Positions 47,874-64,000 of a stretch of 64,000 nt of DNA are shown piece after piece. The position numbers were made by a program, and so were the translations under genes. Numbering within the stretch: position 1 is the stretch's first letter; the number at the start of each line of letters is the position of its first letter. The notes below the pieces were generated by a model. The model was not told where the DNA came from, did not search any database, and saw only the letters and a program-made list of their open reading frames with translations. The stretch covers positions 58,426 to 122,425 of the forward strand of contig JAGOSG010000001.1 in NCBI GenBank assembly GCA_018062445.1. The letters run 5' to 3'. This stretch comes from Minisyncoccota bacterium. Lineage in GTDB: Bacteria; Patescibacteriota; Minisyncoccia; Phycocordibacterales; Phycocordibacteraceae.

Positions 47874-47903
47874 AGGCTTTTATTATGCCATGTTTTTAAA
47901 TGA

Positions 47904-48107
47904 TTATTGATGATGTGCGTGTTCAGGGATGATAAAAGTAGCAATGATGTAGGCAACGATGCCTGGCACGACCCCAGTAAAGATTACCACTAAGACCCAA
48001 ATAAGGCGCAGTAACACGGGGTCGATGTCGAAATATTCTCCAAGCCCTCCGCAGATTCCTGCGAATACTTTATTGGCGTTGCTTTTGTAGAGGTGTTTAT
48101 GGGGCAT
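47904..48107 (-). CDS. PspC domain-containing protein
   Basis: FAGICGGLGEYFDIDPVLLRLIWVL is the PspC signature. Confidence 0.7.
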   Translation of the reverse strand: MPHKHLYKSNANKVFAGICGGLGEYFDIDPVLLRLIWVLVVIFTGVVPGIVAYIIATFIIPEHAHHQ

Positions 48108-48164
48108 AGAGGTATAGGAGACACGCTCAGTGTATTTGTTAAATTTTAAAAGAAAAGCGTACTT

Positions 48165-48626: not shown

Positions 48627-48934
48627 TCCTTAAACCAAGAATGAAACCGGTCACAAGTAAATTTCTAGGAAATTTCTCGCGAAGTCTTTGTGGTCAAAAA
48701 ACCACGAAGAACTGGTCACAGATAAAATGCCTGCCGTCGCAGGCATTTTTCCGCGACCCCGCCTCGCCAAGCATTCGCTGGGCTCCGGCTTTCGATTAAC
48801 CACGGGGAATCTCTCCTTACAGGAGCTGTACACCTTGTGGATTTTTTCTTTCGGAGGCTCAGAAAAAATGCGCACAAGGTCTTCGATTCCCCGCCGTAAA
48901 GCTCCCAGCTTTACTTGGGGTCACAAACTGAAAA

Positions 48935-48960
48935 AAGCCCGACTAAGGGCTTGTTTTCTA
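48935..48960. terminator. bidirectional intrinsic terminator immediately 3' of the tRNA
   Basis: AAAAAA-GCCC-gactaa-GGGC-TTGTTTT. Confidence 0.6.
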
Positions 48961-48965
48961 GTTTG

Positions 48966-49037
48966 TGACCCCACGGGGAATCGAACCCCGATTCCATCCT
49001 TGAGAAGGATGTGTCCTAACCGTTAGACGATGGGGCC
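48966..49037 (-). tRNA. tRNA-Glu (anticodon CUC), 72 nt, CCA not encoded
   Basis: Cloverleaf GGCCCCA / TC / GTCT-AACGGTTA-GGAC / CATCC-TTCTCAA-GGATG / GAAT / CGGGG-TTCGATT-CCCCG / TGGGGTC-A, with a G2·U71 wobble. Confidence 0.85.
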
Positions 49038-49190
49038 GAACGAGAAGGAAAATGAACTTCAATATTCATTTTCTTCGAGAGAGGCCCCGCTTAGCCTATA
49101 CCTTATAGGCGACTGGGGCCGTTTTCAATTTCGACGACCGAAAGCTTAAAATACAGCATTCTTAGTCTTTTCTCAACTGCTCCCCTTCTC

Positions 49191-49233
49191 CTGAAAAGCT
49201 GGAAGCTGACAGCTGGCACCTGAAAGCTACTAG
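49191..49233. repeat. AGCTTTCAG-type heptad repeat (opposite arm)
   Basis: ctgaaaagctggaagctgacagctggcacctgaaagctactag. Confidence 0.6.
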
Positions 49234-49242
49234 AAACTTTTC

Positions 49243-50049
49243 TCAACCTCTTGCAAGCTCGGTTGCAAAAACTTTTCCTGTGATTTCTACAATGGGTTCG
49301 TGTATGTGCGGTGTTGAAACAACAATGCCACCCTTAAACATATCTTTTTCTGCACCAACAAGATCGGTAATCCGTGCACCGGCTTCTAGTGCGATTACCA
49401 TTCCTCCTGCGATATCCCACGCCTTGAGTCCGCGATGTGCCATGGCATCACTCTCTCCAGAGGCTACAGCGCAGATTTCCAAGCTTGCTGCCATTTTTGA
49501 TTCAACAACAGCACCCGCCTCAGTACATCCTTCTCTAATCGCACCGTGCATGCGAAGCGTTTGTTCACTTGCTCCTGTATCCAAAAGAATGTGTGCGCCT
49601 TTCATAGACTCACATGAAGACACTAATATTTTTTCTCCGTTTAAAAATGCACCGCCCCCTCGCTTACCACTATAGAGTTTATTTTCCGCGGGAGAGTACA
49701 CCACGCCAACCTCGGGTACTCCGTCTACAATAAGCCCGATTGAAATAGCGAAGTAGGGGTTACCACTCGAAAAGTTTTTAGTGCCGTCAATTGGGTCGAC
49801 AATCCACATTGAGTTACCCTCTGGCATACCCTTCACCTCTTCGCTGAGAATTGGATACTCAGGAAACTCTTTCCGCAAGGCATCAAGGACATAGGTGTTC
49901 ACCGCAAGGTCAGCAACGGTAAGAAGCGAGCCGTCATCTTTAATACTTCTGTCTGCATCCGTTATCTTTCCAAAATATTGGAGCGCAATATCACCAGCGC
50001 CACGAACGATTACTTCTAGTTTTTCTAAAGAAATATCAGACATACTCAA
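49243..50049 (-). CDS. suhB: inositol monophosphatase family protein
   Basis: WIVDPIDGTKNF and other IMPase motifs. Confidence 0.85.
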   Translation of the reverse strand: MSMSDISLEKLEVIVRGAGDIALQYFGKITDADRSIKDDGSLLTVADLAVNTYVLDALRKEFPEYPILSEEVKGMPEGNSMWIVDPIDGTKNFSSGNPYFAISIGLIVDGVPEVGVVYSPAENKLYSGKRGGGAFLNGEKILVSSCESMKGAHILLDTGASEQTLRMHGAIREGCTEAGAVVESKMAASLEICAVASGESDAMAHRGLKAWDIAGGMVIALEAGARITDLVGAEKDMFKGGIVVSTPHIHEPIVEITGKVFATELARG

Positions 50050-50052
50050 TAA

Positions 50053-51357
50053 TTATCGAATACTCCACTCAGCGTCTTGACGTACTAATAGATCTTTTGC
50101 TTTTTCGGGTTCAGCCATCAAGGACTTCACTACCCTCTCCATACGCATCGATTGCGAGCCTTTAACGAGGATTACATCGCCTGATTGAATAAGAGATAGA
50201 AGCTCGGTTGAGGCATCAGATCCTCTCTCACATTCAATAATCATGTTTTCGGGCATACCTGAAGTGCGTGCACCTTCTGCGATGCCTTTTGTGCGCACAC
50301 CCACCGTTACCAGTATGTCTGCTGACTCTGCAACAAGCGCACCAATGCGATTGTGTTCAATGACTGAAAAACCTCCGAGCTCAAGCATATCGGCGAGGAC
50401 GGCAATACGACGACCTGTCCGTGGAATATCACCAAGCGCAATGAGTGCTTCCTCCATCGCTGCAGGAGAAGCATTGTAGGTGTCATCAATAATCACCGAA
50501 TCCCGCATGCCTTTTATTAAACGCATTCTGCCCGAAGGGGTTTCATGTTTTTGAAACGCCCCTGTTGCTTCTTCAAGTGAAACTCCAACACTAAGCGCAA
50601 CGGCAATACCTGCGAGTACTGAGTACACATGAGAGCGACCAGCAACATCTGGAATGGATACCGTCACCTTTTCATTACCATAACTGATATCAAAAGAAAT
50701 TCCGCTTGGCATGCCATCCTCGCTTGTTGCGCGAAGATTTTCCGCTTTCAAATTTGCACCCTCTCCAAAACCGAAAGAAAGACGAGTAACTCCTGACGCC
50801 GTAGGCGCACCCTCAGCCCGCTCATCGTCTTCGTTGAAAACAAAGATTCCACCAGATTGGAGCCATCCCACAGGAGCGAGCTCTTCTTTAATTACATCTT
50901 CTGGAGAAGCGTAAAATTCAACATGTACAGAAATCTCAGGAAATCTCGTTGCAACCACAACGTCAGGCTTTAACCATGAAAGAGACTTGGTTATGTCGCC
51001 TGGTCTGTCTGCCCCCACCTCAACTATTAACCACTTTGGATACGGAGTAGTGAGGATAAGAAGCGAAATACCGTCTATGAGGTTTCTTATCCACTGGAAT
51101 ACATTAGACCAACCATTCCGAACACCAAGCACCGTTAGAGGAACGCCGATGTCGCCATTAAAACTCTTTTCACTCCTTCGTACAAAAAATGATTTAGAGA
51201 GCGCTGTATAAATGGCATCTTTTGCAGAGGTTTTACCCACACTCCCTGTTACGGCAATTATTTTTGGACGATGCTTCCGAAGTACAAGCTTTGCCTCAAG
51301 CGTGAGCAGGAATACTATTACTTGGCGAAAAAGTTCTTTTAGATTTCCCATAGTCAA
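50053..51357 (-). CDS. murF: UDP-MurNAc-tripeptide--D-Ala-D-Ala ligase
   Basis: IAVTGSVGKTSAKD P-loop, Mur ligase domains. Confidence 0.9.
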   Translation of the reverse strand: MTMGNLKELFRQVIVFLLTLEAKLVLRKHRPKIIAVTGSVGKTSAKDAIYTALSKSFFVRRSEKSFNGDIGVPLTVLGVRNGWSNVFQWIRNLIDGISLLILTTPYPKWLIVEVGADRPGDITKSLSWLKPDVVVATRFPEISVHVEFYASPEDVIKEELAPVGWLQSGGIFVFNEDDERAEGAPTASGVTRLSFGFGEGANLKAENLRATSEDGMPSGISFDISYGNEKVTVSIPDVAGRSHVYSVLAGIAVALSVGVSLEEATGAFQKHETPSGRMRLIKGMRDSVIIDDTYNASPAAMEEALIALGDIPRTGRRIAVLADMLELGGFSVIEHNRIGALVAESADILVTVGVRTKGIAEGARTSGMPENMIIECERGSDASTELLSLIQSGDVILVKGSQSMRMERVVKSLMAEPEKAKDLLVRQDAEWSIR

Positions 51358-51368
51358 TTAGACCTAAG

Positions 51369-53108
51369 TCATCCTCCAGTTTGTGCACGGTCAGGAGGGA
51401 TCTCGTAATAGTTTATAAGAAAATGCACAGTATTCATAAAGGGCAATGTCCACGTCTCTGAAGCGTACTGTGCTCCCTTAGGATACACCGCAAAAAAGAA
51501 GACGAGAAACTTTGGATTGTAGGCTGGGAAGTAGCCAAAAAATGAGTGGAGGTAGCGGTCGGCGTAGTACCCACGGGCGTCAGGGCGGGCAACCTGCGCC
51601 GTTCCCGTTTTTGCGGCAATGCTGTAGTCGGCCATTTTTATTTTTCCACCCTGAAGAGCGTCATCTACTACCGTTACCAACATTCGCGTAATGGCTTCAT
51701 CACTCTCTTTACTTATTGCTTGCATAGGGGGACTCCATCCGAGTTTTTTAGTTATACCTCCACCATAGCGAAGCTCAACGCCAACATGTGGTGCAGGCAC
51801 TACCCCACCATTTGCAAGCGTAGCGAGTGCTCGAGTCATAGCGATGGGAGAAATTGCAATACCCTGCCCGAACGAGGCAGTTGCATATTCAACGGCACGA
51901 GGACTTTTAAGGTTGCTCACAAGTGGTGATGCTTCGTTAGGAAGATCAATACCTGTTTCGCTCGCAATGCCAAATTTTTCTAAATAACCAGCAAATTTTG
52001 CAGTGCCCATTCTAGCAACCACAAATGAAACACCAGTATTGAGCGACTGATTCAACACCTCCTGCATAGACACTACTCCACGTGCTTTATGGTCGTAGTT
52101 ATTAATGCGCAGTCCATCCAAGACGAGGAACCCTTTGTCGTTGTAAGTGGTAGTAGGAGTAACCGCACCTGAATCAATTCCTGCAGCCATGGTTATAGGC
52201 TTCATAGTGGAGCCAAATTCATATACGCGCTCAACCAAGGGGTTCGCAAATGCATTTGGGTCTGCATTTTTAAAATCATTCAAATCAAAGCCTGGGCGTG
52301 ATGCCATTGCAATAATGGCACCGGTTTTTGGATCCATAATAATTCCGCCAACCGTGTCAGAGTTCCACGCCTCATCATATTTTTTCAAAGCATCTTCAAG
52401 AAATTGCTGTACTGATGGTTCAATTGAGGTGACTAAATCAGCACCCGGCTCTACTGTGTCAGGAGAAAATTTTGCACGAATGTTTGTAAAGAGATCCGCA
52501 AAGAAGTTTACATACAGTCCTCCGTCTGAGCGAGACAAAGCGCCATTGTAATAGCGTTCCAAGCCGTATTGCCCCGCAACACTTTTACCATCAGCACCAA
52601 AACCCAAAAAGCCAATAGATTGCGCGGCAAGAACACGCCCAGGGTAAAAACGCCAGTGTGAAGCAAGTACCTGCACTCCAGTTATTTTTAACGCAGAGAT
52701 AGCAACCCCAACCTCTGGCGTTACCTGCTTGGCTATTTCAGCGTATACACTGTCTTTCTTTCGAGCTTTTTCAAGAAATACTGATTCATCAAGGTCGGGC
52801 AATAATTTTTTTAAAGCAGGGTAGACATTTTCTGGATCTCCAAGCCGTGAGGGATTAATAACAATAGTGTTCCCCGCTGCGATGGTTGCCGCCGAAATAA
52901 GTGAACCATCACGAGAAGTAAAAAAGATAGTACCTCGGTCAATTTGGTTGGTGCTTTGTTGCACATACTGACTTTCTGCCTTTAGGCGATACTCTTTGCC
53001 GTGAACCACTTGTAAAAAATACAAGCGTACCAAAAGCACTAACGCAATCAATAGAATAAAACCAGCGATAATGCGTATACGAAAAGCGAAGTTAGACTTA
53101 GCGGACAT
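51369..53108 (-). CDS. ftsI: penicillin-binding protein, class B transpeptidase (FtsI/PBP3-like)
   Basis: SxxK (STMKP), SxN, KTGTA; N-terminal TM; sits in the dcw cluster. Confidence 0.9.
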   Translation of the reverse strand: MSAKSNFAFRIRIIAGFILLIALVLLVRLYFLQVVHGKEYRLKAESQYVQQSTNQIDRGTIFFTSRDGSLISAATIAAGNTIVINPSRLGDPENVYPALKKLLPDLDESVFLEKARKKDSVYAEIAKQVTPEVGVAISALKITGVQVLASHWRFYPGRVLAAQSIGFLGFGADGKSVAGQYGLERYYNGALSRSDGGLYVNFFADLFTNIRAKFSPDTVEPGADLVTSIEPSVQQFLEDALKKYDEAWNSDTVGGIIMDPKTGAIIAMASRPGFDLNDFKNADPNAFANPLVERVYEFGSTMKPITMAAGIDSGAVTPTTTYNDKGFLVLDGLRINNYDHKARGVVSMQEVLNQSLNTGVSFVVARMGTAKFAGYLEKFGIASETGIDLPNEASPLVSNLKSPRAVEYATASFGQGIAISPIAMTRALATLANGGVVPAPHVGVELRYGGGITKKLGWSPPMQAISKESDEAITRMLVTVVDDALQGGKIKMADYSIAAKTGTAQVARPDARGYYADRYLHSFFGYFPAYNPKFLVFFFAVYPKGAQYASETWTLPFMNTVHFLINYYEIPPDRAQTGG

Positions 53109-53138
53109 CTTTGTATTCTAGCGTATGAAGCAACTATT

Positions 53139-53215
53139 AGCTGTCAGGTTTCAGCTGTCAGCTTTCAGCTTTGAATGCAAAAGCTGGCACCTGGAAGCTG
53201 GCACCTGGAAGCTAC
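53139..53215. repeat. AGCTTTCAG-type heptad repeat, both arms
   Basis: agctgtcaggtttcagctgtcagctttcagctttgaatgcaaaagctggcacctggaagctggcacctggaagctac. Confidence 0.75.
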
Positions 53216-53219
53216 TACA

Positions 53220-53597
53220 TTATCTTGCATCTTTAAACGCCACACTTGCCTTGCTCACAAAAGAGCGATCACGCACAGATACAAAGCCAAGTGAGCGAGC
53301 GTACGGCTCAGTAATGGTTTGTGTTTTTGATAGATACGCAGTCTCAAGAGTCGCAACCTCAGCGGACGCGCGCGAAGCAGACCGAACAAGCTCTTGGCGG
53401 GCAGCGACATGTACCACCGAGGAAATCATGAAATAAATATAGAGGACCGACAAAAGAAGGAATGCGACACCAAACACTACTACTGTGCGACGTTCAAATA
53501 CATTTGCATACGCCAATATCCCCGAACGGGTGTTTCTAGAAAACGGCAGTGAACCTTGATGTTCTGATACTTTTTTGGTGTTTCGATTTTTGTTCAT
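53220..53597 (-). CDS. ftsL: cell division protein FtsL-like (single TM plus coiled coil); start at MNKNRN
   Basis: Position between rsmH and ftsI, TM helix, 125 aa. Confidence 0.5.
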   Translation of the reverse strand: MNKNRNTKKVSEHQGSLPFSRNTRSGILAYANVFERRTVVVFGVAFLLLSVLYIYFMISSVVHVAARQELVRSASRASAEVATLETAYLSKTQTITEPYARSLGFVSVRDRSFVSKASVAFKDAR

Positions 53598-53601
53598 GGT
53601 T

Positions 53602-54525
53602 TTATTTTTTGTTTTTTTCAAAAATTCTAAGCTTGGCACTTCTGGCGCGAGGATTCTTTTTCCTCTCCGCCTCACTCGGCACAATGGGTTTTTTGGTAAT
53701 TCGGACACCAATATCAGCATCTTCGGCTTGTCGAAATGCGTGCTTCACAATTCTGTCTTCAAGGCTATGAAATGAAATGACCGCGAGTCTTCCATTAGGA
53801 GCCAAAAGATCGAGCGCTTCTTTGAGTGCTTCTGTAAGAGCGCCAAGTTCATCATTCACTGCGATACGAAGCGCTTGGAATGTTCTTGTTGCGGGATGAA
53901 TTTTCCCATTTCTGTAAAAACTAGGGACAGCCGAAGAAATTATGTCTGCGAGTTGTTTTGCAGTATCAATACTCTGCTTTCTTCGCTCTTCAACAATGAC
54001 GCGAGCAATGCGTCCTGAAAATTTCTCTTCTCCGTATTCTTTGATGATTCGTGCAATCTCTTCTTCATCCCAATCTTTAATGATGTCCTTTGCGGTATAG
54101 AGATGCCCGTCACCAGAGCCGAGTGTCATCAAGAGTGGTTCATCGCTTTTAAATGAAAGCCCCCGACCAGCATCAAGTTGTTCTGAATGCCACCCTAAAT
54201 CAAATACAATCCCTGCAGGGTTAGTAATACCAGCACTCTCTGCGAGAGATTTGATGTTACGAAAATTTCCTTGTACATACATAACTTTCCCTGGTGCATC
54301 GCTCAGACGCTCACGGGAGCGAGTTAAAGAGTTTTCATCAAGATCAAGAACGAGCAGTGTTCCCTTCTTTCCCAATATCTTCGAAATTTTTTCCGAGTGC
54401 CCTCCCGTTCCTACCGTTGCATCTATCGCAGTCGCTCCTGCCTTCAATAGCAATCCATCAACGGTTTCATCCAAAAGAACCGTTTCGTGTTTTATTTCTT
54501 TGATTGCTGTATCTGTTTTTTTCAT
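53602..54525 (-). CDS. rsmH: 16S rRNA (cytosine1402-N4)-methyltransferase
   Basis: AIDATVGTGGHSE SAM-binding motif; follows mraZ. Confidence 0.92.
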   Translation of the reverse strand: MKKTDTAIKEIKHETVLLDETVDGLLLKAGATAIDATVGTGGHSEKISKILGKKGTLLVLDLDENSLTRSRERLSDAPGKVMYVQGNFRNIKSLAESAGITNPAGIVFDLGWHSEQLDAGRGLSFKSDEPLLMTLGSGDGHLYTAKDIIKDWDEEEIARIIKEYGEEKFSGRIARVIVEERRKQSIDTAKQLADIISSAVPSFYRNGKIHPATRTFQALRIAVNDELGALTEALKEALDLLAPNGRLAVISFHSLEDRIVKHAFRQAEDADIGVRITKKPIVPSEAERKKNPRARSAKLRIFEKNKK

Positions 54526-54537
54526 TTTTTTTTCTTA

Positions 54538-54574
54538 AAGCTGGAAGCCGAAAGCTGTAACCTGAAAGCTTTTA
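54538..54574. repeat. AGCTTTCAG-type heptad repeat between mraZ and rsmH
   Basis: aaagctggaagccgaaagctgtaacctgaaagctttt. Confidence 0.55.
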
Positions 54575-55006
54575 TATGACACCAATCTCCCCGAGCTTCG
54601 CAGCCATCGCGTCTCCCTGCGACTCAATCTGCTCTTTGTAGGATGCCCAGCGTTTCTTATCCCAAACTTCAATACGGTCATTCACACCTGCAAGTACGAC
54701 ATCAGTTTTAAGCGTTGCAAAATCTTTCAGATAATCAGGAATAAGAATGCGTCCTGCAGAATCAACATCAGCCTCTACTGCGCCTGCAAGCATGAAGCGA
54801 TTAAAACCTCGTGTATCAGATGAGCCTATAGAAAGCTGACTAAACTTCTCTGCAAGTTTTTTCCATGATGTTACTGAGAAAACAAAAAGACAGTGGTCGA
54901 GTCCTCGAGTAACGATAACGGTCTTACCAAGTTCTTTACGAAAGCGAGCCGGAAGTGAAAGGCGTTTTTTTGGATCAAGCGTGTGCTGGTATTCGCCAAT
55001 GAGCAT
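54572..55006 (-). CDS. mraZ: transcriptional regulator MraZ (start at MLIGEYQ)
   Basis: MLIGEYQHTLDPKKRLSLPARFR and second DUF-MraZ repeat. Confidence 0.88.
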   Translation of the reverse strand: MLIGEYQHTLDPKKRLSLPARFRKELGKTVIVTRGLDHCLFVFSVTSWKKLAEKFSQLSIGSSDTRGFNRFMLAGAVEADVDSAGRILIPDYLKDFATLKTDVVLAGVNDRIEVWDKKRWASYKEQIESQGDAMAAKLGEIGVI

Positions 55007-55040
55007 GAAAATAAAGGGGATTTTGTGGCTCAAAACTTAT

Positions 55041-55115
55041 ATGCCACTTTGTCCCACTTACTTCGTATTATATGCCACTCTGCCCCACTTTATGTTTACT
55101 TATCCCCACTTTGGA
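55041..55115 (-). promoter_or_regulatory. mraZ promoter with MraZ-box direct repeats (five AGTGG[G/C] motifs, two pairs at 10-bp period) flanking a TATAAT -10 element
   Basis: Minus strand: aaGTGGGgataagtaaacataaaGTGGGgcagaGTGGCaTATAATacgaagtaaGTGGGacaaaGTGGCat. Confidence 0.55.
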
Positions 55116-55155
55116 GAGCCAGGTTGTAGGTGTGAGGTGTGAGCTTTCAGGTAAC

Positions 55156-55185
55156 AAAAAATCCCCACCGTTGGTGGGGATTTTA
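55156..55185 (-). terminator. intrinsic terminator of lysS (also reads as a hairpin on the plus strand)
   Basis: ATCCCCACC-gtt-GGTGGGGAT with TTTTTT on the minus strand. Confidence 0.7.
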
Positions 55186-55213
55186 GACTTTAAAAATGGC
55201 TATGAAAATGAAA

Positions 55214-56806
55214 TTAAGAAACTTCTTTGAGGCGGGAAATCACGAATTCCCTATCCAAAACACTAAGGAACCACCCCACCTTAGGGCCATGGTCTTTCCC
55301 TAAGAACGCTTGATAGATTGCCCCGAAGAAAGCTTTAGGTTCTATGGCGTGTCGCTTTCGTATCTCATGAATTTCTGTGTGGAGTGCTAAACCATCAAGC
55401 TTCTCATGACTCTCTATGAAAGTGAGCAATTCCACTAGCGTACTCTTCTGCTCGAGAGACAAATTCTTTGCAGATTCAGGAACACTATCCATTGAAAGCG
55501 AAAATTTAAATTCATCAGAGGCTGATTTCTCCAGCCAAATCTTGGCGTACTTTGCTCGAAGCTCTAGCTCTTCTCTATCAAGTGGTGTTATTGCCCCTCC
55601 CTTTAAGCGGAGCATTTCAGACTCCAAATCAAGGTGTGGCATCTGCACAAGGAATGCTACTTGCGAGAATCTCGGGAGAAATCGCTTTCTACTTTTGAGC
55701 GCAACCCGTTCGACTGGTGTATGAATATATTCAAATAATCGTGAATCATCATCAACAATTCCTGACCAGTACTTCTCCGCAAGAGTGTCATAGGTATCAA
55801 ATAACACTGGAATAGTGTCACCAGCTGGATCAAAGTTAATTTGCTGATTCATATCCTTGCCAAAAAGTGCAAGTCTAAATATTTGCGGAGGCAAAAGATC
55901 AACAATCTCACGTGCCGAGGATCCTGCACCTTTTGAGGAAGACATTTTTTTGCCTCCCACTAAAAAGAATTCATTTGGTACACCGAAGGGTTCAGGGTAC
56001 TCGAACACTTCCTCCGAAATACGGCGCGCAACATCTCTCGCACCCCCTTTGGAGTAGTGGTCTTTACCACCACCTTCAACATCAACGCCCATCACTTTCC
56101 ATTTTGCAGCCCATTCAACCTTCCATGGCAATTTTGCTTTGCCATCAAACGGAGATACTTCTCCTTTGTACCCACATCCAACTGCCCACTTCACGGCAGT
56201 GGGATAACAGGCGTAGGTGACTTTTTCTCCGTCAAACAGAGTTGCTTTCGTTGTACCTACTTTCCCGCACTGCTCGCAAATGATTGAAATTGGAAGCCAT
56301 GTGTCGGCGCGCTCTGCTCCTGAAATTTCTTTATAGATTTGGCGAATGAGTGGTGCTTTCTCAAGTGCGGTACGAATAACTCCATTCATCCGTCCTGAAA
56401 GATACAATTCACTTGCGCGATAAAACTCTGGAGTAAAACCAGCATCATGAATTGCCTCTCTGTATTCGTTTGCAAAATATTCAGCAAAGTTTTCTGCCGA
56501 CAGATCAGGAGATGGGACATGCAAGAGTGGCTTTCCCATGTGCTCGGTGTACACCGATGCGTCCAAGTAGACAGGAAGACCATCCATTGGGTCGAAGTCG
56601 TTTATTTCGTATTTAAAAATGTTTGGAACACCAGCTTCTGTAAGTCGTTCTGAAAGTGCAGCGTGAAGTGCAAGTGCGCGCATGGAACCCACATGCACAC
56701 GACCAGATGATGTTTTTTCATCACGAACCGTAAGCGTGTTGCCTGACGCTATTTTTTCTTTAAGCGAAGTTCCTAGTTGTTCGTATACCCTATCAAGCCA
56801 GAACAT
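55214..56806 (-). CDS. lysK: lysine--tRNA ligase, class I (archaeal-type LysK)
   Basis: …TSSGRVHVGSMRA… (HIGH-like) and KMSSSKG (KMSKS); about 530 aa colinear with Pyrococcus-type class I LysRS. Confidence 0.88.
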   Translation of the reverse strand: MFWLDRVYEQLGTSLKEKIASGNTLTVRDEKTSSGRVHVGSMRALALHAALSERLTEAGVPNIFKYEINDFDPMDGLPVYLDASVYTEHMGKPLLHVPSPDLSAENFAEYFANEYREAIHDAGFTPEFYRASELYLSGRMNGVIRTALEKAPLIRQIYKEISGAERADTWLPISIICEQCGKVGTTKATLFDGEKVTYACYPTAVKWAVGCGYKGEVSPFDGKAKLPWKVEWAAKWKVMGVDVEGGGKDHYSKGGARDVARRISEEVFEYPEPFGVPNEFFLVGGKKMSSSKGAGSSAREIVDLLPPQIFRLALFGKDMNQQINFDPAGDTIPVLFDTYDTLAEKYWSGIVDDDSRLFEYIHTPVERVALKSRKRFLPRFSQVAFLVQMPHLDLESEMLRLKGGAITPLDREELELRAKYAKIWLEKSASDEFKFSLSMDSVPESAKNLSLEQKSTLVELLTFIESHEKLDGLALHTEIHEIRKRHAIEPKAFFGAIYQAFLGKDHGPKVGWFLSVLDREFVISRLKEVS

Positions 56807-56893
56807 CAGTCAATCCTAAGCTAAAGAAGCTTGATATACAAGAAAATTCTCCCAAGGTAGGGAGAATAAGAATGCCTAAATTATTTAAGAAAG

Positions 56894-57061
56894 CTAATTT
56901 TTCTTTCGGCTCTTTGCTTCTCTATCTAATTTTTCCTGCTGTTTCTTCTTCCACCCTGTTTTAGTCCATTTTGGAAAGCCGTCTATTCCTCCTGCTGTTT
57001 CAGCCTTCGTTACTTCAACGCCCGTAATGTAGAAGGTCCCGTGACTTTGTTCTATGCCCAT
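56894..57061 (-). CDS. hypothetical 55-aa Lys-rich protein, starts 5 nt after the greA stop
   Basis: ORF only (MGIEQSHGTFYITGVEVTKAET…). Confidence 0.25.
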   Translation of the reverse strand: MGIEQSHGTFYITGVEVTKAETAGGIDGFPKWTKTGWKKKQQEKLDREAKSRKKN

Positions 57062-57065
57062 GGAC

Positions 57066-57557
57066 TTAAGAAATCTCAATAACAGTGTACTCCTGTCTTC
57101 CGCTTGGAGTTGAGAATGTAAATGTCTCACCCTTCTTTTTGTTCATCATTGCTTCACCGAGTGGCGAGAGGTGAGAAATCTTGTGCTGACGCATATCTGC
57201 TTCCTCACTTCCTACAATGGTGTATGCATGCTCGCCTTTGTCACCTTTTTTGCGAATCGTAACTGTTGAGCCAAAACCTGCAACTCCTTTTTTCTTTTCT
57301 GAAATAATGACCGCTGATTTTATGATGTGCTCGAGCCTGCGAATGCGCTCTTCCGTCGCTGCTTGCAGTTCACGCGCTGCCTGATATTCAGCATTCTCTG
57401 AAAGGTCGCCAAGAGAGCGTGCGTACTCAAGGCCTTCTGCGATTTCTCTTCTTGCAACGGTAACTAAACGCTCGAGCTCCAACTTTAATTCATCAAATTT
57501 TTCCTGAGAAAGAAGATTTTGTTCTTCTGATTGATCACCTTTTGTACGTGCTTTCAT
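57066..57557 (-). CDS. greA: transcription elongation factor GreA
   Basis: Coiled-coil N-domain …LGDLSENAEYQAARE…, FKBP-like C-domain. Confidence 0.88.
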   Translation of the reverse strand: MKARTKGDQSEEQNLLSQEKFDELKLELERLVTVARREIAEGLEYARSLGDLSENAEYQAARELQAATEERIRRLEHIIKSAVIISEKKKGVAGFGSTVTIRKKGDKGEHAYTIVGSEEADMRQHKISHLSPLGEAMMNKKKGETFTFSTPSGRQEYTVIEIS

Positions 57558-57680
57558 AGTGGTATGCGATATTGTAAGTGGCATTGCAAAAATACGCAAT
57601 GCCCACGAATTAGAACATATTTTAGATAGAAAAAATCCTATCTCTGCTCTCCTTTTCTGTAGTCCTTGTGGATCTGATGA

Positions 57681-57720
57681 GGTGTCACCTGAAAGCTGAA
57701 AGCTGGCACCTGAAACCTAC
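57681..57720. repeat. AGCTTTCAG-type heptad repeat
   Basis: ggtgtcacctgaaagctgaaagctggcacctgaaacctac. Confidence 0.6.
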
Positions 57721-59444
57721 TTCACCATCTCTGGTCTTTCACTAACAATAAAACGAAGCACCTCTCCCATCACCGCAGGTGCCCCTTGCGGTGTGCCTGC
57801 CTTTGCGCGTTCCATCACCACCGCAAATGCATACTTAGGACTCTCATAGGGGAAGAATCCAACAACAAGTGAGTTGATGGATTCTTTACGCGCGCCAACT
57901 TCTGCAGTCCCTGTCTTTGCAGCGGCACGCACCCCAGGGACAGCGAGCGCTTGCGCCAAGCCTTCCGTAACAGCAAGTCGCATACCTTCCCGAACAACCT
58001 CTAAGTTACTAGAACTTACTGCGACATTTGTATGTAATCCATTTTGTCCTACTTCAATCACTGGTGTAATTAACATTCCATCGTTTGCAATCGCTGCAGT
58101 GCTCCGAACTAACTGCATCACCGTTACCTGAAAGCCGTACTGCCCAATTGCTGTGTGGTATGTGTTTCCAAGAAACCACCGCTCTCCATCAAACATGTTT
58201 GCTTTCCACTCTGGGTCTGGAACTGTACCAAATTCTTCACCTGACATTGGTACACCTGTTTCTTTTCCAAAACCAAACATACGCATGTACTTATCAATTG
58301 TTGCAATGCCAAGTCCCGCTTGGTCTTGATACCCGCCACCTATCGCGTAGAAATAAACATCAGACGACACTGAGAGCGCTTTGCGAATATCAACCCACCC
58401 ATGTGCTTTCCAATCTTTAAAGACAGAGGGCTTAGAAGGATCATACGGATTGGGAATGGAAATTGATCCAGTCGATAAAATTTGCTTGGTGGGACTAATG
58501 ATGCGCTCTTGGAGTGCGGCACTCGCCATAAAAGGTTTTACCACCGAGCCCGGCGTGTAGAGCCCTGAGACTGCCCGATCAAGAAATGGTGAACGATCAC
58601 TGGCAAGGAGTTTTGCAACAGCATCTTTAGGTGAACCGCTCGACATAACTTCAGGATCAAACGACGGATAACTCACTACCGCTAAGAGCTCCCCTGTTTG
58701 TACATCCATAATTACACCAGAACCACCACGCCATTTTGACTCCTCAGACCGATTGGCAATGGCTTCATGCATTGCCTTTTGAAGACCTGCATCAATGGAA
58801 AGACGAATGTCACTCCCAGTCTTTGCGGTGCGCACCATACTGCCTGAAACCACATTTCCCGATGCATCTGTTTCAGCAATACTGAGACCATTCGTCCCAG
58901 AGAGTGCCTCATCATACAAAGACTCAACTCCAACAACACCTGCCGTGTGATCTTGGTACCAATACCCATTTTGATCCGCTTTTGGATACGACACATACCC
59001 CACCAACACTGACGCAGAAGAACCAAAAGGATATTTCCTTGTTGCAAAAAGGCCGAGAGGCGCATCTTTTTTTGTCGTTGAAGAAGCGAGTGTTTCTGAT
59101 ATTCCCGCTGTATTACCTGCCAAGACTACTCCAGTACGATCAAGAATAAGACCACGGTCAGCAATAATTACTGAATGTGCAAGTCGATTGGCTTCAGCGC
59201 GCGCAGATAAAGACTGATATTGGACAATCTGTAAATTAATCAGTGCTCCTATAAATATGACCCCAACAAGCAAGACAATAGAAAAAAAACCAGTGAATAC
59301 GGAAGTACCTACAGGCCTCTCAATTCTTCCTTCAAGTCTAGAGGTATCGAACGCAGGCAGGTTTGCTGCATCAATAAGAATTTCGTCAGGTTCAATTTCC
59401 TGATATCGTTTTTTTCGATTAAAGATGCGACGAAATATAGTCAT
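57717..59444 (-). CDS. mrdA: penicillin-binding protein 2 (elongasome transpeptidase)
   Basis: SxxK (SVVKP), SxD, KTGTAEV; adjacent to mreBCD. Confidence 0.88.
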   Translation of the reverse strand: MTIFRRIFNRKKRYQEIEPDEILIDAANLPAFDTSRLEGRIERPVGTSVFTGFFSIVLLVGVIFIGALINLQIVQYQSLSARAEANRLAHSVIIADRGLILDRTGVVLAGNTAGISETLASSTTKKDAPLGLFATRKYPFGSSASVLVGYVSYPKADQNGYWYQDHTAGVVGVESLYDEALSGTNGLSIAETDASGNVVSGSMVRTAKTGSDIRLSIDAGLQKAMHEAIANRSEESKWRGGSGVIMDVQTGELLAVVSYPSFDPEVMSSGSPKDAVAKLLASDRSPFLDRAVSGLYTPGSVVKPFMASAALQERIISPTKQILSTGSISIPNPYDPSKPSVFKDWKAHGWVDIRKALSVSSDVYFYAIGGGYQDQAGLGIATIDKYMRMFGFGKETGVPMSGEEFGTVPDPEWKANMFDGERWFLGNTYHTAIGQYGFQVTVMQLVRSTAAIANDGMLITPVIEVGQNGLHTNVAVSSSNLEVVREGMRLAVTEGLAQALAVPGVRAAAKTGTAEVGARKESINSLVVGFFPYESPKYAFAVVMERAKAGTPQGAPAVMGEVLRFIVSERPEMVK

Positions 59445-59453
59445 ACTACTATT

Positions 59454-59711
59454 TTATTCTGAAAGAGTTCGGTGAAGATACCATGAAAATATAACGAGCA
59501 TGAAAAAAAGTGCTGTGTAGAGATACTGAAATCCTCCAAATGGAACCATTGGTGCACCAAAAACTAAATCCATACAGATACCCCCAATAATGACGAGTAC
59601 GCTGGCTTCAAAAAGTGAAAGCAAAAGAATACCCAAAGCTACAGTGAGCCACCAAGGACAGAAAAACACACTCGCGAAAAACGCCACACTCAGTCCTATG
59701 CGGGCAATCAT
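59454..59711 (-). CDS. mreD: rod shape-determining protein MreD (small polytopic membrane protein)
   Basis: Position after mreC, 85 aa, 3 TM. Confidence 0.55.
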   Translation of the reverse strand: MIARIGLSVAFFASVFFCPWWLTVALGILLLSLFEASVLVIIGGICMDLVFGAPMVPFGGFQYLYTALFFMLVIFSWYLHRTLSE

Positions 59712-60475
59712 CGGGTAGGAATAATTCGAATAAAATCAAGTTCAGAAAATGAAAATGGAATGGTGAATCGTACTATTTGAGATACATCACGTACCTCGGC
59801 AGAAATACTTTGAACAACGCCAGCAACAAGCGACTCAGTTGCAGGAAATCGTACTGAATCTCCTATTGCAACTTTTACACCTTGAGGGACAGAAACTTCA
59901 AACGCGCCACCGCCCAAACCTTTAGCTACTGCAACCGCGCGTGGATCGCCGAGAATGACATCATGCGAAACACCTGAACTTGAAAACAAAGTCACTGTCG
60001 CACTATTGCTATCAACAGCACTAATGCGCCCAAGCACCACACCTTGATATATAGCCACATCATTTTCATTGATACCGCCCGATTTCCCTACATCAATGAG
60101 GAGTGTGTCGTAATTTGTTCGAGGAGGTCTCGCAATAACACGAGCGGTAACGCCATGGGGAGTTGCCACTGCACTCACCGACTCACGAAGCGATGCATTT
60201 TCATTCGCCAAGAGACTATATAAAAGCGCCTGATAGTGCGTGCGCTTCAATTCAGCATCGGCAATATTGAGGCGAGCGATGAGTGCATTTTTCGACAGTG
60301 CACTATACTCATCGGCCTTTGCGCGAGGAGCTACAACATTTGCCACAATTCCCCTCATGAACGAACCGATGTTCGAGCTAAATACAAACACAATAACCAA
60401 ACTTGCCAGCGCAATAGCGCCAGTAAGAAAATGGAGTCGTGTTTTAGAACCCCGCGAGTACACCATCATCGTCAT
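59708..60475 (-). CDS. mreC: rod shape-determining protein MreC
   Basis: N-terminal TM, coiled coil, beta-rich C-domain; follows mreB. Confidence 0.7.
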   Translation of the reverse strand: MTMMVYSRGSKTRLHFLTGAIALASLVIVFVFSSNIGSFMRGIVANVVAPRAKADEYSALSKNALIARLNIADAELKRTHYQALLYSLLANENASLRESVSAVATPHGVTARVIARPPRTNYDTLLIDVGKSGGINENDVAIYQGVVLGRISAVDSNSATVTLFSSSGVSHDVILGDPRAVAVAKGLGGGAFEVSVPQGVKVAIGDSVRFPATESLVAGVVQSISAEVRDVSQIVRFTIPFSFSELDFIRIIPTR

Positions 60476-61505
60476 CGACTAATACTGCGCGATATTTTTC
60501 AACATCTTCGAGCACAATGCCGGTCCCACGAACAACCGTAGTGAGTGGGTCATCGACTACATGAATAGGTACCTTAAGCTCTGATGCCAAAAGCTCAGGC
60601 AACCCTCGAAGTAAGGCACCTCCACCCGTAAGGAAAATACCGAGACGCATCACATCAGAGACCACTTCAGGAGGAGCTGTTTCGATTACTTCTTTTATCG
60701 CTTCAACAATCGAAATAATAGAGGAGCCAGTGGCTTCTCGTATATCTGCATCAGTAATAACAATTTCACGGGGAAGTCCCGTCACTAAATCACGACCTCG
60801 AATGTGTGTCTCTAGTGCCACTGGTAACTTGATTGCTGAACCAACTGCAACTTTTACATCCTCAGCAGTGCGCTCACCAATTAAAATTTTGAATTCGCTA
60901 CGAATGTAACTCGCAATATCATCATTCAAAACATCTCCCGCGATTCGAATATTCTTTGCACGAACTATTCCACCCAAGGACATGAGCGCGATGTCGGTAG
61001 TACCTCCACCAATGTCCACGAGCATTGTCCCCACAGCGCTCTCAACAGGAAGCCGTGCGCCCAAAGCTGCAGCCATAGGCTCTTCAATAATTAATACTTC
61101 CCTCGCACCAGCATTTTTTGCAGCATCTCTGACGGCGCGAATTTCTACATTGGTAATACCTGAAGGAACACCAATAACAACACGGGGTCCTAACAACATT
61201 CGCTCCGTTTGTGCTTTTTGAATCAGATAGGTAAGCATTTCTTCGGTCACTTCGAAATCAGAAATAACACCCTCAACGAGAGGTCTAATGGCAGTGATGT
61301 GTGTCGGGGTCCTCCCTATCATGTCTCTCGCGGAAGCTCCGACAGCAACCACTTGTCCAGTTTTCTGATTCAACGCCACAACCGATGGCTCGGTGATGAC
61401 AATTCCCTTACCTTTCAAATACACCAAGGTATTAGCGGTACCAAGATCAATACCAATATCCTTTGAGAACCGCTCTGCTATTTTTCGCGGTAATTTAAAA
61501 GCCAT
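60444..61505 (-). CDS. mreB: rod shape-determining protein MreB
   Basis: Actin-fold motifs IGIDLGTANT, DIGGGTTD. Confidence 0.95.
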   Translation of the reverse strand: MAFKLPRKIAERFSKDIGIDLGTANTLVYLKGKGIVITEPSVVALNQKTGQVVAVGASARDMIGRTPTHITAIRPLVEGVISDFEVTEEMLTYLIQKAQTERMLLGPRVVIGVPSGITNVEIRAVRDAAKNAGAREVLIIEEPMAAALGARLPVESAVGTMLVDIGGGTTDIALMSLGGIVRAKNIRIAGDVLNDDIASYIRSEFKILIGERTAEDVKVAVGSAIKLPVALETHIRGRDLVTGLPREIVITDADIREATGSSIISIVEAIKEVIETAPPEVVSDVMRLGIFLTGGGALLRGLPELLASELKVPIHVVDDPLTTVVRGTGIVLEDVEKYRAVLVDDDDGVLAGF

Positions 61506-62748
61506 AATTTTGAGTTAACAGTGCCCGTTTTGATACCGTCTTTTTTAGTCCATCAACACGTCTCACAATTTCAAATGAATCTTCGGTCGACTGTCGTCCT
61601 ACCACTATGCGGTATGGCATACCTAAAAGATCTGAATCTGCAAATTTCTCTCCCGCGCGCGTATCTCGCTCATCGTACAAAACCTCAACACCAACAGCTT
61701 GAAGTTCTTCATATAAAGAATCCGCAAGCGCGCGTATTTTTTCATCCCCTTGTGAGAGCTCAACAAGATGAACATCGAAGGGTGCAATAGAAGCAGGCCA
61801 GACAATTCCCTTCTCATCGCACAATACTTCCACCACGGTGCCGAGAAGTCGTCCTACGCCTATGCCGTATGAGCCCATGTGTACCTCGGCATCTTTCCCG
61901 TCTTTGTCCTTGTATTTGAGACCAAGAGCATCAGCGTACTTCGTGCCGAGTTTAAAGATGTTACCCACTTCAATAGATTTTGCTTCTACCAACTTATTGC
62001 GATCAAGCGAGAGCTCTTCAAGCACTTCCTCTGTCATGACTTCATCGTTCACTGCAATCCGCTTTTCCGTGTCTATATATATAGTGTCTTCACCTGCAGT
62101 TGAAACCGTTTGGAACTCATGACTGAATTTTGAAAATACTCCGCCTGACGCAAATGTGAGGTAGGTAATATCACCCAAGCCAACACGACGGAATATATTT
62201 TCATAGGCGATACCCACCTCTTTATAAAATGCATCGAGCTCTTCTTCTGAGCGACAAAATGAATATAAATCTTTCATCACAAACTCGCGCCCACGCATGA
62301 TGCCGGATTTGGTGCGAAGTTCGTTTCGAAACTTTGACTGAAAGTGGTACACATATCGAGGTAAATCACGGTAGCTCGATACCTGCATGGCAACCGCTTT
62401 TGTGATTGGTTCTTCATGCGTAAAAGAAAGTCCAAGCTCCCCTCCTGATTTCAGTTCAGTCTTAAACCAATTATCTATTTTTTTATCGTCCCAGCGATCA
62501 GTCGCCTTCCAGAGTTCTGGATTCTGCAAAACAGAAAAAGAAACTTCCTGCCCGCCAAGTGCATTCATTTCCTCTCGAATAATGTTTTCAATTTTTTTAA
62601 AAACACGAAGTCCGAGTGGAAGTAAATCGTACACACCAGCCATTTCCTTGTGAATGTAGCCACCTCGAATCAGAAGCTGAGCATTCTCGGAAACCTCATC
62701 TTTTGGGGCATCCTTGCGGGTTTTAGTAAAGAGATGTGACTGCTTCAT
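61495..62748 (-). CDS. proS: proline--tRNA ligase, short bacterial-type lacking the INS editing domain (417 aa)
   Basis: Class II motifs and ProRS N-terminus MKQSHLFTKTRKDAPKDEVSENAQLLIRGGYI. Confidence 0.88.
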   Translation of the reverse strand: MKQSHLFTKTRKDAPKDEVSENAQLLIRGGYIHKEMAGVYDLLPLGLRVFKKIENIIREEMNALGGQEVSFSVLQNPELWKATDRWDDKKIDNWFKTELKSGGELGLSFTHEEPITKAVAMQVSSYRDLPRYVYHFQSKFRNELRTKSGIMRGREFVMKDLYSFCRSEEELDAFYKEVGIAYENIFRRVGLGDITYLTFASGGVFSKFSHEFQTVSTAGEDTIYIDTEKRIAVNDEVMTEEVLEELSLDRNKLVEAKSIEVGNIFKLGTKYADALGLKYKDKDGKDAEVHMGSYGIGVGRLLGTVVEVLCDEKGIVWPASIAPFDVHLVELSQGDEKIRALADSLYEELQAVGVEVLYDERDTRAGEKFADSDLLGMPYRIVVGRQSTEDSFEIVRRVDGLKKTVSKRALLTQNYGF

Positions 62749-62765
62749 TCTCGAAATAGTACAGC

Positions 62766-63101
62766 CTAAAAGAGCTTTCCGCCAACAATGGCAGAATCAT
62801 TGCTTGGGACAACAAGAATTGCCTGCCCTTCCGAATCGGGCACACCGAGCGTCAAACACTCTGAAACAAAAGGTCCAATTTGCCGAGGAGGAAAATTGAC
62901 TACACCAAGAACCTTCTTGCCGAGAAGTTCTTCTTTTGTGTGATGTTTCACAAGCTGTGCGGATGAATGTTTGATGCCAATATCAGATCCAAAATCAATG
63001 GTCAACTTATACGCAGGCTTTCTTGCTTCGGGAAAATCAAACACTTCAATAATTTTTCCAACCCTAATATCTACAATCCCCAAATCATCTATAGTTGCCA
63101 T
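62766..63101 (-). CDS. csaA: tRNA-binding protein CsaA/Trbp111-like (EMAP/OB-fold domain)
   Basis: VDIRVGKIIEV… OB-fold tRNA-binding domain, 111 aa. Confidence 0.8.
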   Translation of the reverse strand: MATIDDLGIVDIRVGKIIEVFDFPEARKPAYKLTIDFGSDIGIKHSSAQLVKHHTKEELLGKKVLGVVNFPPRQIGPFVSECLTLGVPDSEGQAILVVPSNDSAIVGGKLF

Positions 63102-63107
63102 AAGTAA

Positions 63108-63431
63108 TTACTGTAAGCTATTAATATTTTTCTCATCTCTCCTCAGCGCTCTCCACAACCTTCTCATTTTCACATCTAAGAGCTCTATGGAGTATGGAAT
63201 GAGGTGGAGATTCTTAGAAGTATCTCCTGCGTCCAACCATTCACGAAAGCGACTCTGTCTCGCTTCATATATACCAATTGAAGCCTTGAGGTGCTTCACG
63301 TGTCTTAGAAGACGCTCTTTCTTCTCCGAAGCACTCTCAGATTGACGGCGTGCACTTTTGAATTTGCGCCGTTCTTTTCTTCTAACAACATCAGTGAGCC
63401 TAGAAGAATCATTTTCTAATATTCTGAACAT
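63108..63431 (-). CDS. hypothetical basic protein (108-aa form starting MFRILEN); the longer 134-aa ORF would overlap the T-box core
   Basis: ORF begins about 70 nt downstream of the T-box motif; no family recognised. Confidence 0.3.
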   Translation of the reverse strand: MFRILENDSSRLTDVVRRKERRKFKSARRQSESASEKKERLLRHVKHLKASIGIYEARQSRFREWLDAGDTSKNLHLIPYSIELLDVKMRRLWRALRRDEKNINSLQ

Positions 63432-63737
63432 ATTCGTGTAACTAATTACCTCATAACGCCAACCCTTCGAATTTCTTCGAAACGTAAGGGGCGCAAAGCA
63501 GCGCGGTACCACCCTTTAGTAATCCCAAACAAAAAGCGCCTACCGGCGCGTGCTTGGAATCCTCAGTGCTCCTGCCTTTCGGCTGACACACGTAGACGCG
63601 TTTTTACGGTTGTCCTCCGTCGCACTTATATCCACCGTGGAATTTCGTGCGCAGCTTGTTTGGCTGGGTACCAAACTCAAACGCCTGTATGTAACTAAAA
63701 CTAGTGTACCAAAAGAAGCGAGAGTGTCAAAACTAAC
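63432..63737 (-). promoter_or_regulatory. T-box riboswitch leader (minus strand) upstream of the hypothetical-csaA-proS operon; candidate promoter TTGACA-16-TACACT at its 5' end
   Basis: Exact T-box core 5'-AGGGUGGUACCGCG-3' is the reverse complement of 63502-63515; candidate specifier-loop ACCCA (Pro CCC codon); GCGCC-ggua-GGCGC-UUUUU hairpin nearby. Confidence 0.55.
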
Positions 63738-64000
63738 TTAAGAAACTAAACGAAAGATATCGTGAGCAGTTACTGCAAGCATAAGAATAATGAGCACACC
63801 AAACCCAGCAACATTTATGATGTCAGAAACTCGTGCAGGAATCTTGCGTCGAGAGATTGTTTCAATACAGAGGAGTGCTAATCGTCCGCCATCAAGAGCT
63901 GGAAACGGAAGCAAGTTCACAATTGCCAAGTTCATTGAAATTAACGCTGCGAGAGAAAGAACGGAACCCAAGCCAAACCCGCTAGCATCTCCAACAAGTG
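63738..64000 (-). CDS. rseP: site-2 protease RseP (M50), C-terminal part only; gene continues past the window end
   Basis: C-terminal NLLPFPALDGGRL motif of M50 proteases. Confidence 0.7.
   Translation of the reverse strand, partial: LVGDASGFGLGSVLSLAALISMNLAIVNLLPFPALDGGRLALLCIETISRRKIPARVSDIINVAGFGVLIILMLAVTAHDIFRLVS

Follow-up and report, generated by a model that had tools for sequence, protein, structure and literature searches.

A predicted proline-specific T-box leader with a truncated Stem I upstream of orf107-csaA-proS in a bacterium of the candidate phyla radiation

Introduction

T-box riboswitches that act on transcription generally require a long Stem I with a platform for the tRNA elbow, and a Stem I of intermediate or ultrashort length typically belongs to the translational T-boxes of actinobacterial ileS genes (PMC7583486; PMC11297988). 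Such short-Stem-I ileS switches have been described from M. smegmatis, M. tuberculosis and N. farcinica (Sherwood et al., 2015, as quoted in PMC7583486 and PMC11297988). Here a leader RNA is described from a 64,000-nt stretch of contig JAGOSG010000001.1 (hereafter the window, to which all positions refer), whose source is, to judge from its proteins, a bacterium of the candidate phyla radiation (CPR; Paceibacteria). Taken as a whole, it is probable that the minus-strand segment 63696-63487 is a T-box riboswitch which senses uncharged tRNA-Pro and controls the genes orf107, csaA and proS. That the segment is a genuine proline T-box sensor appears almost certain.

Like the canonical class I T-boxes (B. 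subtilis tyrS and glyQS), the leader has the 14-nt T-box sequence, a bulged antiterminator with UGGN, a putative kink-turn (K-turn) at the base of Stem I, a purine after the specifier, Stem II, a Stem IIA/B pseudoknot and Stem III. It also shares with them the association with genes for the cognate aminoacyl-tRNA synthetase or for amino acid biosynthesis, and the relatives have terminators in which the antiterminator 3' strand takes part and behind which a U-tract stands. Unlike canonical class I, Stem I is only 7 bp long, the specifier is in its terminal loop and not in an internal Specifier Loop, the elbow platform is absent, the host belongs to the CPR, and the copy in the window has no terminator U-tract. 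The class members other than the window score 27-57 bits against the Rfam T-box model RF00230, all below its gathering score of 93.

With the actinobacterial ileS switches (class II) the leader shares a truncated Stem I without elbow platform, Stem III plus a bulged helix as discriminator, and a retained Stem II, Stem IIA/B and putative K-turn; by analogy, these retained elements presumably compensate for the lost elbow contact. It differs from these Shine-Dalgarno (SD)-sequestering switches in that most class members have terminators with U5-7 and that the genome of the window lacks SD usage. Further differences are the specificities (Pro, Trp, Arg and His, not Ile), the hosts (CPR, not Actinobacteria), a GC hairpin with U-run in Stem III, and a Stem II loop of GAAAU/UAUAA rather than the textbook AGUA/GAA S-turn. 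Among Firmicutes, the B. subtilis proBA and proI leaders are reportedly proline T-boxes with a long canonical Stem I. Three of the CPR leaders (L003, L006 and L175, see below) resemble these in placing a proline specifier over proline biosynthesis genes, and the CPR leaders are unlike them in also controlling proS, csaA, ornithine cyclodeaminase and small helical proteins.

T-box sequence, promoter and Rfam alignment

The T-box core AGGGUGGUACCGCG was found at 63515-63502 on the minus strand, which carries all leader elements. As claimed in an earlier note on this DNA, it is an exact match to the conserved 14-nt T-box sequence AGGGUGGNACCGCG. A search with AGGGTGGNACCGCG that allowed up to one mismatch gave this single match in the window, and none of 100 dinucleotide shuffles contained a match. 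The core is separated by 70 nt from the ATG at 63431, the start of the first open reading frame (ORF), in agreement with the distance of about 70 nt given earlier. Upstream of the leader the following element was found.

63730..63703, minus strand: sigma-70-type promoter, TTGACA (63730-63725), 16-nt spacer and TG-extended TACACT (63708-63703)

This promoter, already proposed as a TTGACA-16-TACACT candidate, has 10/12 matches and is the best in positions 45001-64000, the last 19 kb of the window. All homologous leaders have a TTGAC-N17/18-TAnAnT promoter at equal distance, and the leader RNA is predicted to start about 7-10 nt downstream of it.

At gathering thresholds, the Rfam search of the whole window returned a tRNA only and not RF00230. 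In E-value mode, RF00230 was aligned over its full length (model 1-219) to 63690-63484 with 28.6 bits (E = 1.2e-4 for a 421-nt search). The alignment covers the GA motif, Stem II including its GAA, the CGG...CCGU hairpin of IIA, Stem III and the antiterminator, and reduces 76 Stem I model positions to 9 nt. The score is below the threshold because distal Stem I is missing, Stem I being truncated with the specifier in the terminal loop. The cmsearch check suggested in the earlier note thus gave a full-length match, but not a score at the gathering level.

Homologous leaders and compensatory changes

Eighty CPR loci were retrieved via ProS and scanned with nhmmer and a covariance model. The leader was found in six of them (L003 to L008), which hold the closest ProS relatives. 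A metagenome scan for the IIA/B motif (pattern GACGGN{5,7}AACCGTAAAAA) gave 120 stretches, mostly chance matches, with about 11 T-box leaders; it added L115, L175, L100, L105, L156, L140, L171, L172, L124 and L165. A covariance model (R1) built from seven leaders and a hand-drawn structure gave 236 bits for the window leader and detected 16 further leaders, 17 sequences in total at 18-236 bits. Members of the class come from Paceibacteria and from Gottesmanbacteria, and the specificities among them are Pro, Trp, Arg and His.

In the alignment of the 17 sequences, 93.9% of the pair cells were standard pairs, compared with 36-41% when the 3' partners were slid by 1-3 columns. Double-sided changes occurred in 47 of the 56 pairs, and none of 500 shuffles reached any of these measures. 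On an unfitted MAFFT alignment, RNAalifold recovered Stem I, Stem II, Stem IIB, a linker hairpin and the two antiterminator helices A1/A2; de novo, IIB had three double-sided changes. The covariation that the earlier note had expected of a true T-box is hence present in 16 homologues.

A complete T-box architecture on a short Stem I

The following elements were assigned to the leader.

63696..63487, minus strand: T-box sensor RNA of 210 nt, from the conserved 5' AGUUNNAUANA through the antiterminator 3' strand
63685..63653, minus strand: base of Stem I with putative K-turn (GA motif), GGC (63685-63683)/GCU (63655-63653)
63676..63658, minus strand: truncated Stem I, a 19-nt hairpin of 6-7 bp, GUUUGG(U)/(G)CCAAAC
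63651..63621, minus strand: Stem II, CGCAC/GUGCG, an internal loop (5' GAAAU, 3' UAUAA) and a UCCA-CGG-UGGA tip
63620..63594, minus strand: Stem IIA/B pseudoknot, IIA ACGG/CCGU (63620-63606), loop GGAC (63615-63612) with GUCU (63597-63594)
63591..63566, minus strand: linker hairpin between pseudoknot and Stem III, GUGUGUC-A-GCC-GAAA-GGC-A-GGAGCAC
63561..63521, minus strand: Stem III, 41 nt, with an 11-bp lower stem GAUUCCAAGCA/UGUUUGGGAUU and a GC-rich tip
63549..63536, minus strand: Stem III tip hairpin, GCGCC-GGUA-GGCGC, followed by U5 at 63535..63531
63515..63487, minus strand: antiterminator (discriminator), AGGG-UGGUACC-GCGC-UGCUUU-GCGC-CCCU, predicted at -9.5 kcal/mol

The outer pair of the helix at the base of Stem I covaries (GU, AU, UA, UG, GC). 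The K-turn-like motif has UGA-G on its 5' strand (GA 63678-63677) and C-AA on its 3' strand (63658-63656), the latter being C-GA in L005, L007 and L008. In the window the pairs would form a G-A/A-A tandem as compared with G-A/A-G, and the motif aligns to the Rfam GA-motif columns gCgaU.GA...GAGc. Stem I itself closes a terminal loop of 7 nt, UACCCAG (63670-63664), and all seven of its pairs show double-sided changes. In most of the 17 class members aligned, the window included, Stem I is a hairpin of 19 nt. By Rfam alignment and loop comparison, Stem I in the window lacks the distal platform, the AG bulge and the distal loop. Its sequence UUUGGUACCCAG holds UGGUACC, the same heptamer as the T-box bulge at 63511-63505. 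This is probably a coincidence, as the homologues (UGGUUCC, UGGUUUC) do not keep the heptamer.

In the two helices of Stem II, 4/5 and 4/4 pairs have double-sided changes; in L006 and L008 Stem II is a short hairpin only. Compared with an S-turn, the 5' strand of its internal loop has GAA, and the 3' strand reads GAUAUAA, not AGUA. Stem IIA is invariant in the 17 sequences. Stem IIB covaries, with GGAC/GUCU, GGGC/GCCU, AGGC/GCCU, AGGG/CCCU, AGGA/UCCU and AGUC/GACU; these pairs were read by eye and not counted by the tool, since several rows of the model alignment have their 3' strand displaced by 1-3 columns.

Stem III, with a predicted energy of -20.9 kcal/mol, has double-sided changes in 15 of its 16 pairs. 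The GCGCC-ggua-GGCGC-U5 hairpin, regarded in the earlier note as odd for lying 5' of the core, is present at 63549-63531 and is the tip of Stem III. It is not misplaced, because Stem III normally occupies that place. The antiterminator consists of the helices A1 (AGGG/CCCU) and A2 (GCGC/GCGC) with the 7-nt bulge UGGUACC between them on the 5' side, and A1/A2 are 98-100% paired in the 17 sequences with compensatory changes. For the region, in which a search for Stem I, a K-turn and a specifier loop had been recommended earlier, a complete T-box architecture can be modelled, with a short Stem I and an aligned K-turn-like motif.

Proline specificity and the genes behind the leaders

The specifier in the window reads CCA (63667-63665) followed by G63664; in the alternative frame it reads CCC (63668-63666) followed by A, and both codons specify proline. 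The loops of the proline leaders are UACCCAG (window, L003, L004 and L005), UACCCCG (L006, L008 and L115), UUCCCCG (L007), UUUCCCG (L175) and AUUCCGG (L105). Loop positions 4-6 followed by G are the sole frame that gives a proline codon (CCA, CCC or CCG) in every one of them. The ACCCA element that had been thought to present a CCC specifier is indeed at 63669-63665 in the hairpin loop, and CCC does encode proline, but the frame consistent with the homologues is CCA followed by G. Every proline leader carries UGGU in the bulge, which predicts A73 on tRNA-Pro. The genes that follow the proline leaders are listed below.

Window, L004 and L005: leader, one small helical ORF, csaA, proS
L003 (flanks about 99% identical to the window): leader, proA-proC-proB-csaA-proS
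L006: leader, proA-proC-proB-proS; csaA absent, a 41-aa ORF in between
L007 and L115: leader, small helical ORFs, proS; csaA absent
L008: leader, ornithine cyclodeaminase-csaA-proS
L105: leader, csaA and an archaeal-type proS
L175: leader, proB-proA

Sister leaders carry other specificities. A Trp leader with a UGG specifier and a UGGC bulge precedes trpE-G-D-C in a Candidatus Gottesmanbacteria locus, and this leader recurs at other trpE loci of Gottesmanbacteria. The Arg leader L156 (CGC, UGGU bulge) precedes argH-argG...argS. The His leader L165 (CAC, UGGG bulge) stands beside a tRNA-His(GUG) gene that has C73, hisS lying farther downstream, and is the one sister leader in which complementarity between UGGN and the discriminator base was seen (UGGG versus C73). 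Short of experiments, no functional argument is stronger than this joint change of specifier, bulge base and genes. The earlier proposal of a proline T-box controlling a hypothetical-csaA-proS operon is borne out by the architecture, by the covariation in 16 homologues and by the same leader standing before proline biosynthesis genes of relatives.

Several of these loci have features of their own. In L008, the ornithine cyclodeaminase gene (2583-3593; NF005762, 406 bits) offers a one-step route from ornithine to proline in place of proA/B/C or of the small ORF. Between L003 and the window, csaA-proS-mreB is about 99% identical and the end of an M50 protease gene 88%; in between, a cassette is exchanged, the window having a leader with long Stem III plus orf107 (63108-63700, 0.6 kb) and L003 having proA-proC-proB (264-3650, 3.4 kb). 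The L003 leader is without Stem III and has a strong terminator. Just upstream of its promoter L003 has a near-perfect 50-nt inverted repeat (167-237, TTCCTCAAAACATTCCAACATTCT...AGAATGTTGGAATGTTTTGAGGAA), which is absent from the window and gives spurious sub-threshold Rfam matches to plant and animal microRNA families. In L165 (1554-1914), the terminator of the T-box ends near 1830, the tRNA-His(GUG) gene follows within about 12 nt (1842-1914), and hisS comes about 1.3 kb after that; it is unusual for a T-box to stand immediately before the gene of its cognate tRNA.

The Gottesmanbacteria Trp leaders L140, L171, L205 and L203 repeat near-identical arms, (C/U)CCCGAU...AUCGGG(G/A), two to three times per leader, namely in the Stem I/II region, in the Stem III tip and inside the terminator. 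Likewise, the window has two copies of GCGCC...GGCG(C/U), one at the Stem III tip and one belonging to the competing helix described below. Repeated arms of this kind could permit alternative long-range pairings.

The output step and competing explanations

Downstream of the T-box core, at the position of a terminator, an alternative pairing is possible.

63494..63456, minus strand: competing helix, GCGCC (63494-63490) with GGCGU (63460-63456)

Its GCGCC strand is made up of the A2 3' strand and the first C of A1, and the helix encloses an independent hairpin at 63485-63462 (ACGUUUCGAA-GAAA-UUCGAAGGGU). The tail behind it, UAUGAGGUAA, is not a U-tract. Predicted energies are -15.4 kcal/mol for the competing helix, -9.5 for the antiterminator and -8.3 for the inner hairpin; the latter two can coexist, and their sum of -17.8 kcal/mol compares with the -15.4 of the competing helix. 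L005 retains the GCGCC/GGCGU helix; in L004 this position is taken by a hairpin with CUUUUAUU behind it. Together with L004, L005, L007, L008 and L115 the window forms a sub-type with a long Stem III and a post-antiterminator hairpin that overlaps by 1-6 nt. Ten relatives have long GC-rich terminators that consume the antiterminator 3' strand and are followed by U5-7; for L003 the predicted energies are -29.1 kcal/mol for the terminator versus -4.9 for the antiterminator. For the class as a whole, the ancestral mechanism would be transcription attenuation, because the competing helix of most relatives is a strong intrinsic terminator.

From the observed architecture, conservation, covariation and link to proline genes we infer tRNA binding and the output step as follows. 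Transcription would start just downstream of the TTGACA/TACACT promoter. The K-turn would position the truncated Stem I, so that its 7-nt loop presents a proline codon (CCA or CCC) to the anticodon, and Stem II with the IIA/B pseudoknot would probably stand in for the lost contact to the tRNA elbow, as in the ileS T-boxes of Actinobacteria. The discriminator would consist of Stem III and the bulged antiterminator, UGGU pairing with the free ACCA-3' of uncharged tRNA-Pro and stabilising the antiterminator. With charged tRNA-Pro, GCGCC would pair with GGCGU (63460-63456), giving a default state of lower expression. Whether the output in the window is weak transcription attenuation we regard as an even call; weak and leaky attenuation at most is to be expected there, because the tail is only UUAU and the competing helix is not predicted to be more stable than the antiterminator with the inner hairpin.

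Several observations weigh against a functional proline switch of this kind. The RF00230 score of 28.6 bits falls far short of the gathering score of 93, only 6 of the 80 CPR proS loci carry the leader, the covariation counts derive from a model-fitted alignment, and a scan of the window and of 68 fetched loci revealed no tRNA-Pro gene. At the output step, the competing helix has no U-tract (GGCGU-UAUGAGG, with a UUAU tail only) and overlaps the antiterminator by just 5 nt, predicted stability slightly favours the antiterminator with the inner hairpin, so that the switch may sit mostly ON, and among the six leaders of the sub-type a U-rich tail is found only in L004. That the 14-mer is a chance match without T-box function, as the sub-threshold Rfam score would allow, is nevertheless hardly credible in view of the shuffles without a match, the full architecture, the covariation in the homologues and the linkage to proline genes.

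A sensor that is intact behind a switch that has been disabled would account for the missing U-tract, which would have been lost after the cassette exchange, and would leave a constitutively read-through 5' untranslated region with little or no regulation. The energies, by which the antiterminator with the inner hairpin is at least as stable as the competing helix, agree with this, as does the lack of detectable DNA similarity from about 63476 to csaA (63110) even to L004, whose flanks are 93% identical. We consider it unlikely, since the six leaders of the sub-type, down to a ProS identity of about 67%, keep the T-box core (with one substitution in L008), the specifier and, with compensatory changes, every helix, all of which would be unexpected of a dead element. 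Moreover, the sub-type includes L008, whose leader stands before a genuine gene of proline synthesis, and the GCGCC/GGCGU helix persists in L005.

A terminator-like structure is also present upstream of the bulge. The Stem III tip with U5 was flagged as the second-best terminator-like site in the 19 kb, 15 of 19 class members have a GC hairpin with U5-7 where Stem III lies, and in the sub-type of the window it is the sole hairpin with a U-run. Transcription might stop there effectively (63549-63531), yielding mostly an RNA of about 165 nt that would contain the module presenting the codon, and the T-box would fine-tune rare read-through. This is improbable: the tip cannot sense tRNA charging because it is upstream of the T-box bulge, its stem has 5 bp only (-9.2 kcal/mol), and covariation is seen in the lower helix of Stem III, whose formation requires sequence 3' of the U-run, so that full-length leaders appear to be under selection. 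Most plausibly, the Stem III tip with U5 is a hairpin-stabilised RNA polymerase pause site or a partial early stop. Such a pause would give Stem I, which lacks the platform, extra time to capture the tRNA before the decision point.

The truncated Stem I, so far tied to translational T-boxes (PMC7583486), and the absence of a U-tract after the competing helix could instead point to translational control as in actinobacterial ileS, the helix masking the site at which ribosomes enter orf107 for as long as no uncharged tRNA-Pro stabilises an anti-sequestrator. The earlier note had named translational switching as an example of a non-canonical mechanism. Only 4 of the 45 window ORFs of at least 150 aa, however, have an SD-like 4-mer (GGAG, GAGG, AGGA-like) within 22 nt upstream, 25 nt separate the end of the competing helix from the ATG at 63431, which the helix does not cover, and the nearest GAGG is 17 nt from this ATG, for which no SD sequence stands at a functional distance. 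Sequestration of an SD sequence was rejected on these grounds, the genome barely using SD sequences and the helix stopping short of the start codon. Since, in addition, clear terminators are present in close relatives that share this sensor, a translational switch seems very improbable. A mini-ORF, AUG-AGG-UAA (63454-63446), 8 nt after AAGGG, was considered as a regulated leader peptide and dropped, because its counterpart in L005 (AUG-AAG-UAA) loses AAGGG and because AAGGG is paired in both conformations.

Relation to described T-box classes

By sequence, architecture and genetic logic the leader is a T-box; it has neither the distal platform, nor a score at the Rfam threshold, nor the SD sequestration of the actinobacterial switches. 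Its real peculiarities are the loop-borne specifier on a truncated Stem I, a host within the CPR, a Stem III that resembles a terminator, and the absence of a U-tract from the copy in the window. Literature searches for T-boxes together with Patescibacteria, candidate phyla radiation or Parcubacteria, and for riboswitches with Patescibacteria and Rfam, found nothing, at incomplete full-text coverage. We put forward tentatively that the leaders form an undescribed CPR T-box class, in which termination would proceed without an elbow platform, the GC hairpin with U-run in Stem III, as a pause or a partial first terminator, would compensate for slower tRNA capture, and the window copy, having lost its terminator U-tract in a genome devoid of SD sequences, would act by another output step.

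Many CPR genomes have a truncated Stem I before strong terminators, with four amino-acid specificities, as against the view in reviews (PMC7583486) that transcriptional T-boxes generally need a long Stem I and that a truncated one marks the slower translational ileS switches of Actinobacteria. Such natural sequences could be used to test the need for the elbow contact in co-transcriptional decisions, and a Stem III pause as its substitute. The leaders indicate that amino-acid-responsive regulation is present in ultra-small CPR genomes, and a whole class is missed by the Rfam T-box threshold (27-57 bits versus 93). The genes for proline supply (proA-proC-proB or ornithine cyclodeaminase) appear as an exchangeable cassette under T-box control beside proS.

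Downstream genes and other features of the window

The leader is followed by three genes.

63431..63108, minus strand: orf107, first gene after the leader, a basic protein of 107 aa with ATG at 63431
63101..62766, minus strand: csaA, tRNA-binding domain protein of 111 aa (PF01588, 3.8e-13)
62748..61495, minus strand: proS, prolyl-tRNA synthetase of 417 aa (TIGR00409, 419.8 bits, cutoff 306.7)

All three genes of the minus-strand operon described earlier (hypothetical, csaA and proS) were found in place, with csaA and proS above their family cutoffs. The first ORF has the coordinates reported before (63431 to 63108), but encodes 107 and not 108 aa. CsaA scored 140.8 bits against NF007495 (cutoff 117) and 134 bits against TIGR02222 (cutoff 120) in NCBIfam. 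ProS matches the bacterial-type model TIGR00409 in two separate stretches, and its protein sequence is 100% identical to the ProS of Parcubacteria bacterium Greene0714_7; a Candidatus Pacebacteria metagenome-assembled genome encodes a protein identical to orf107. A 134-aa GTG-started ORF (63512-63108), which runs in frame through the leader, was rejected as the gene start.

The orf107 gene adjoins the gene of the tRNA-binding CsaA, and its product contains a single proline. The AlphaFold2 model has three long helices (predicted local distance difference test score 85), and a search with it gave no PDB fold match below E = 0.1. In Pfam a sub-threshold DUF349 match only was obtained, and in NCBIfam none. 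A search of 5.8 billion proteins returned two homologues only, 100% and 86% identical. Identity to orf93 of L004 is 42%, and only about 20% to the small helical ORFs at the same position in L007 and L115.

The sole tRNA in the window is tRNA-Glu(CUC) at 48965-49037 on the minus strand. Beside it, a palindromic hairpin at 48935-48952 was flagged as terminator-like on both strands.

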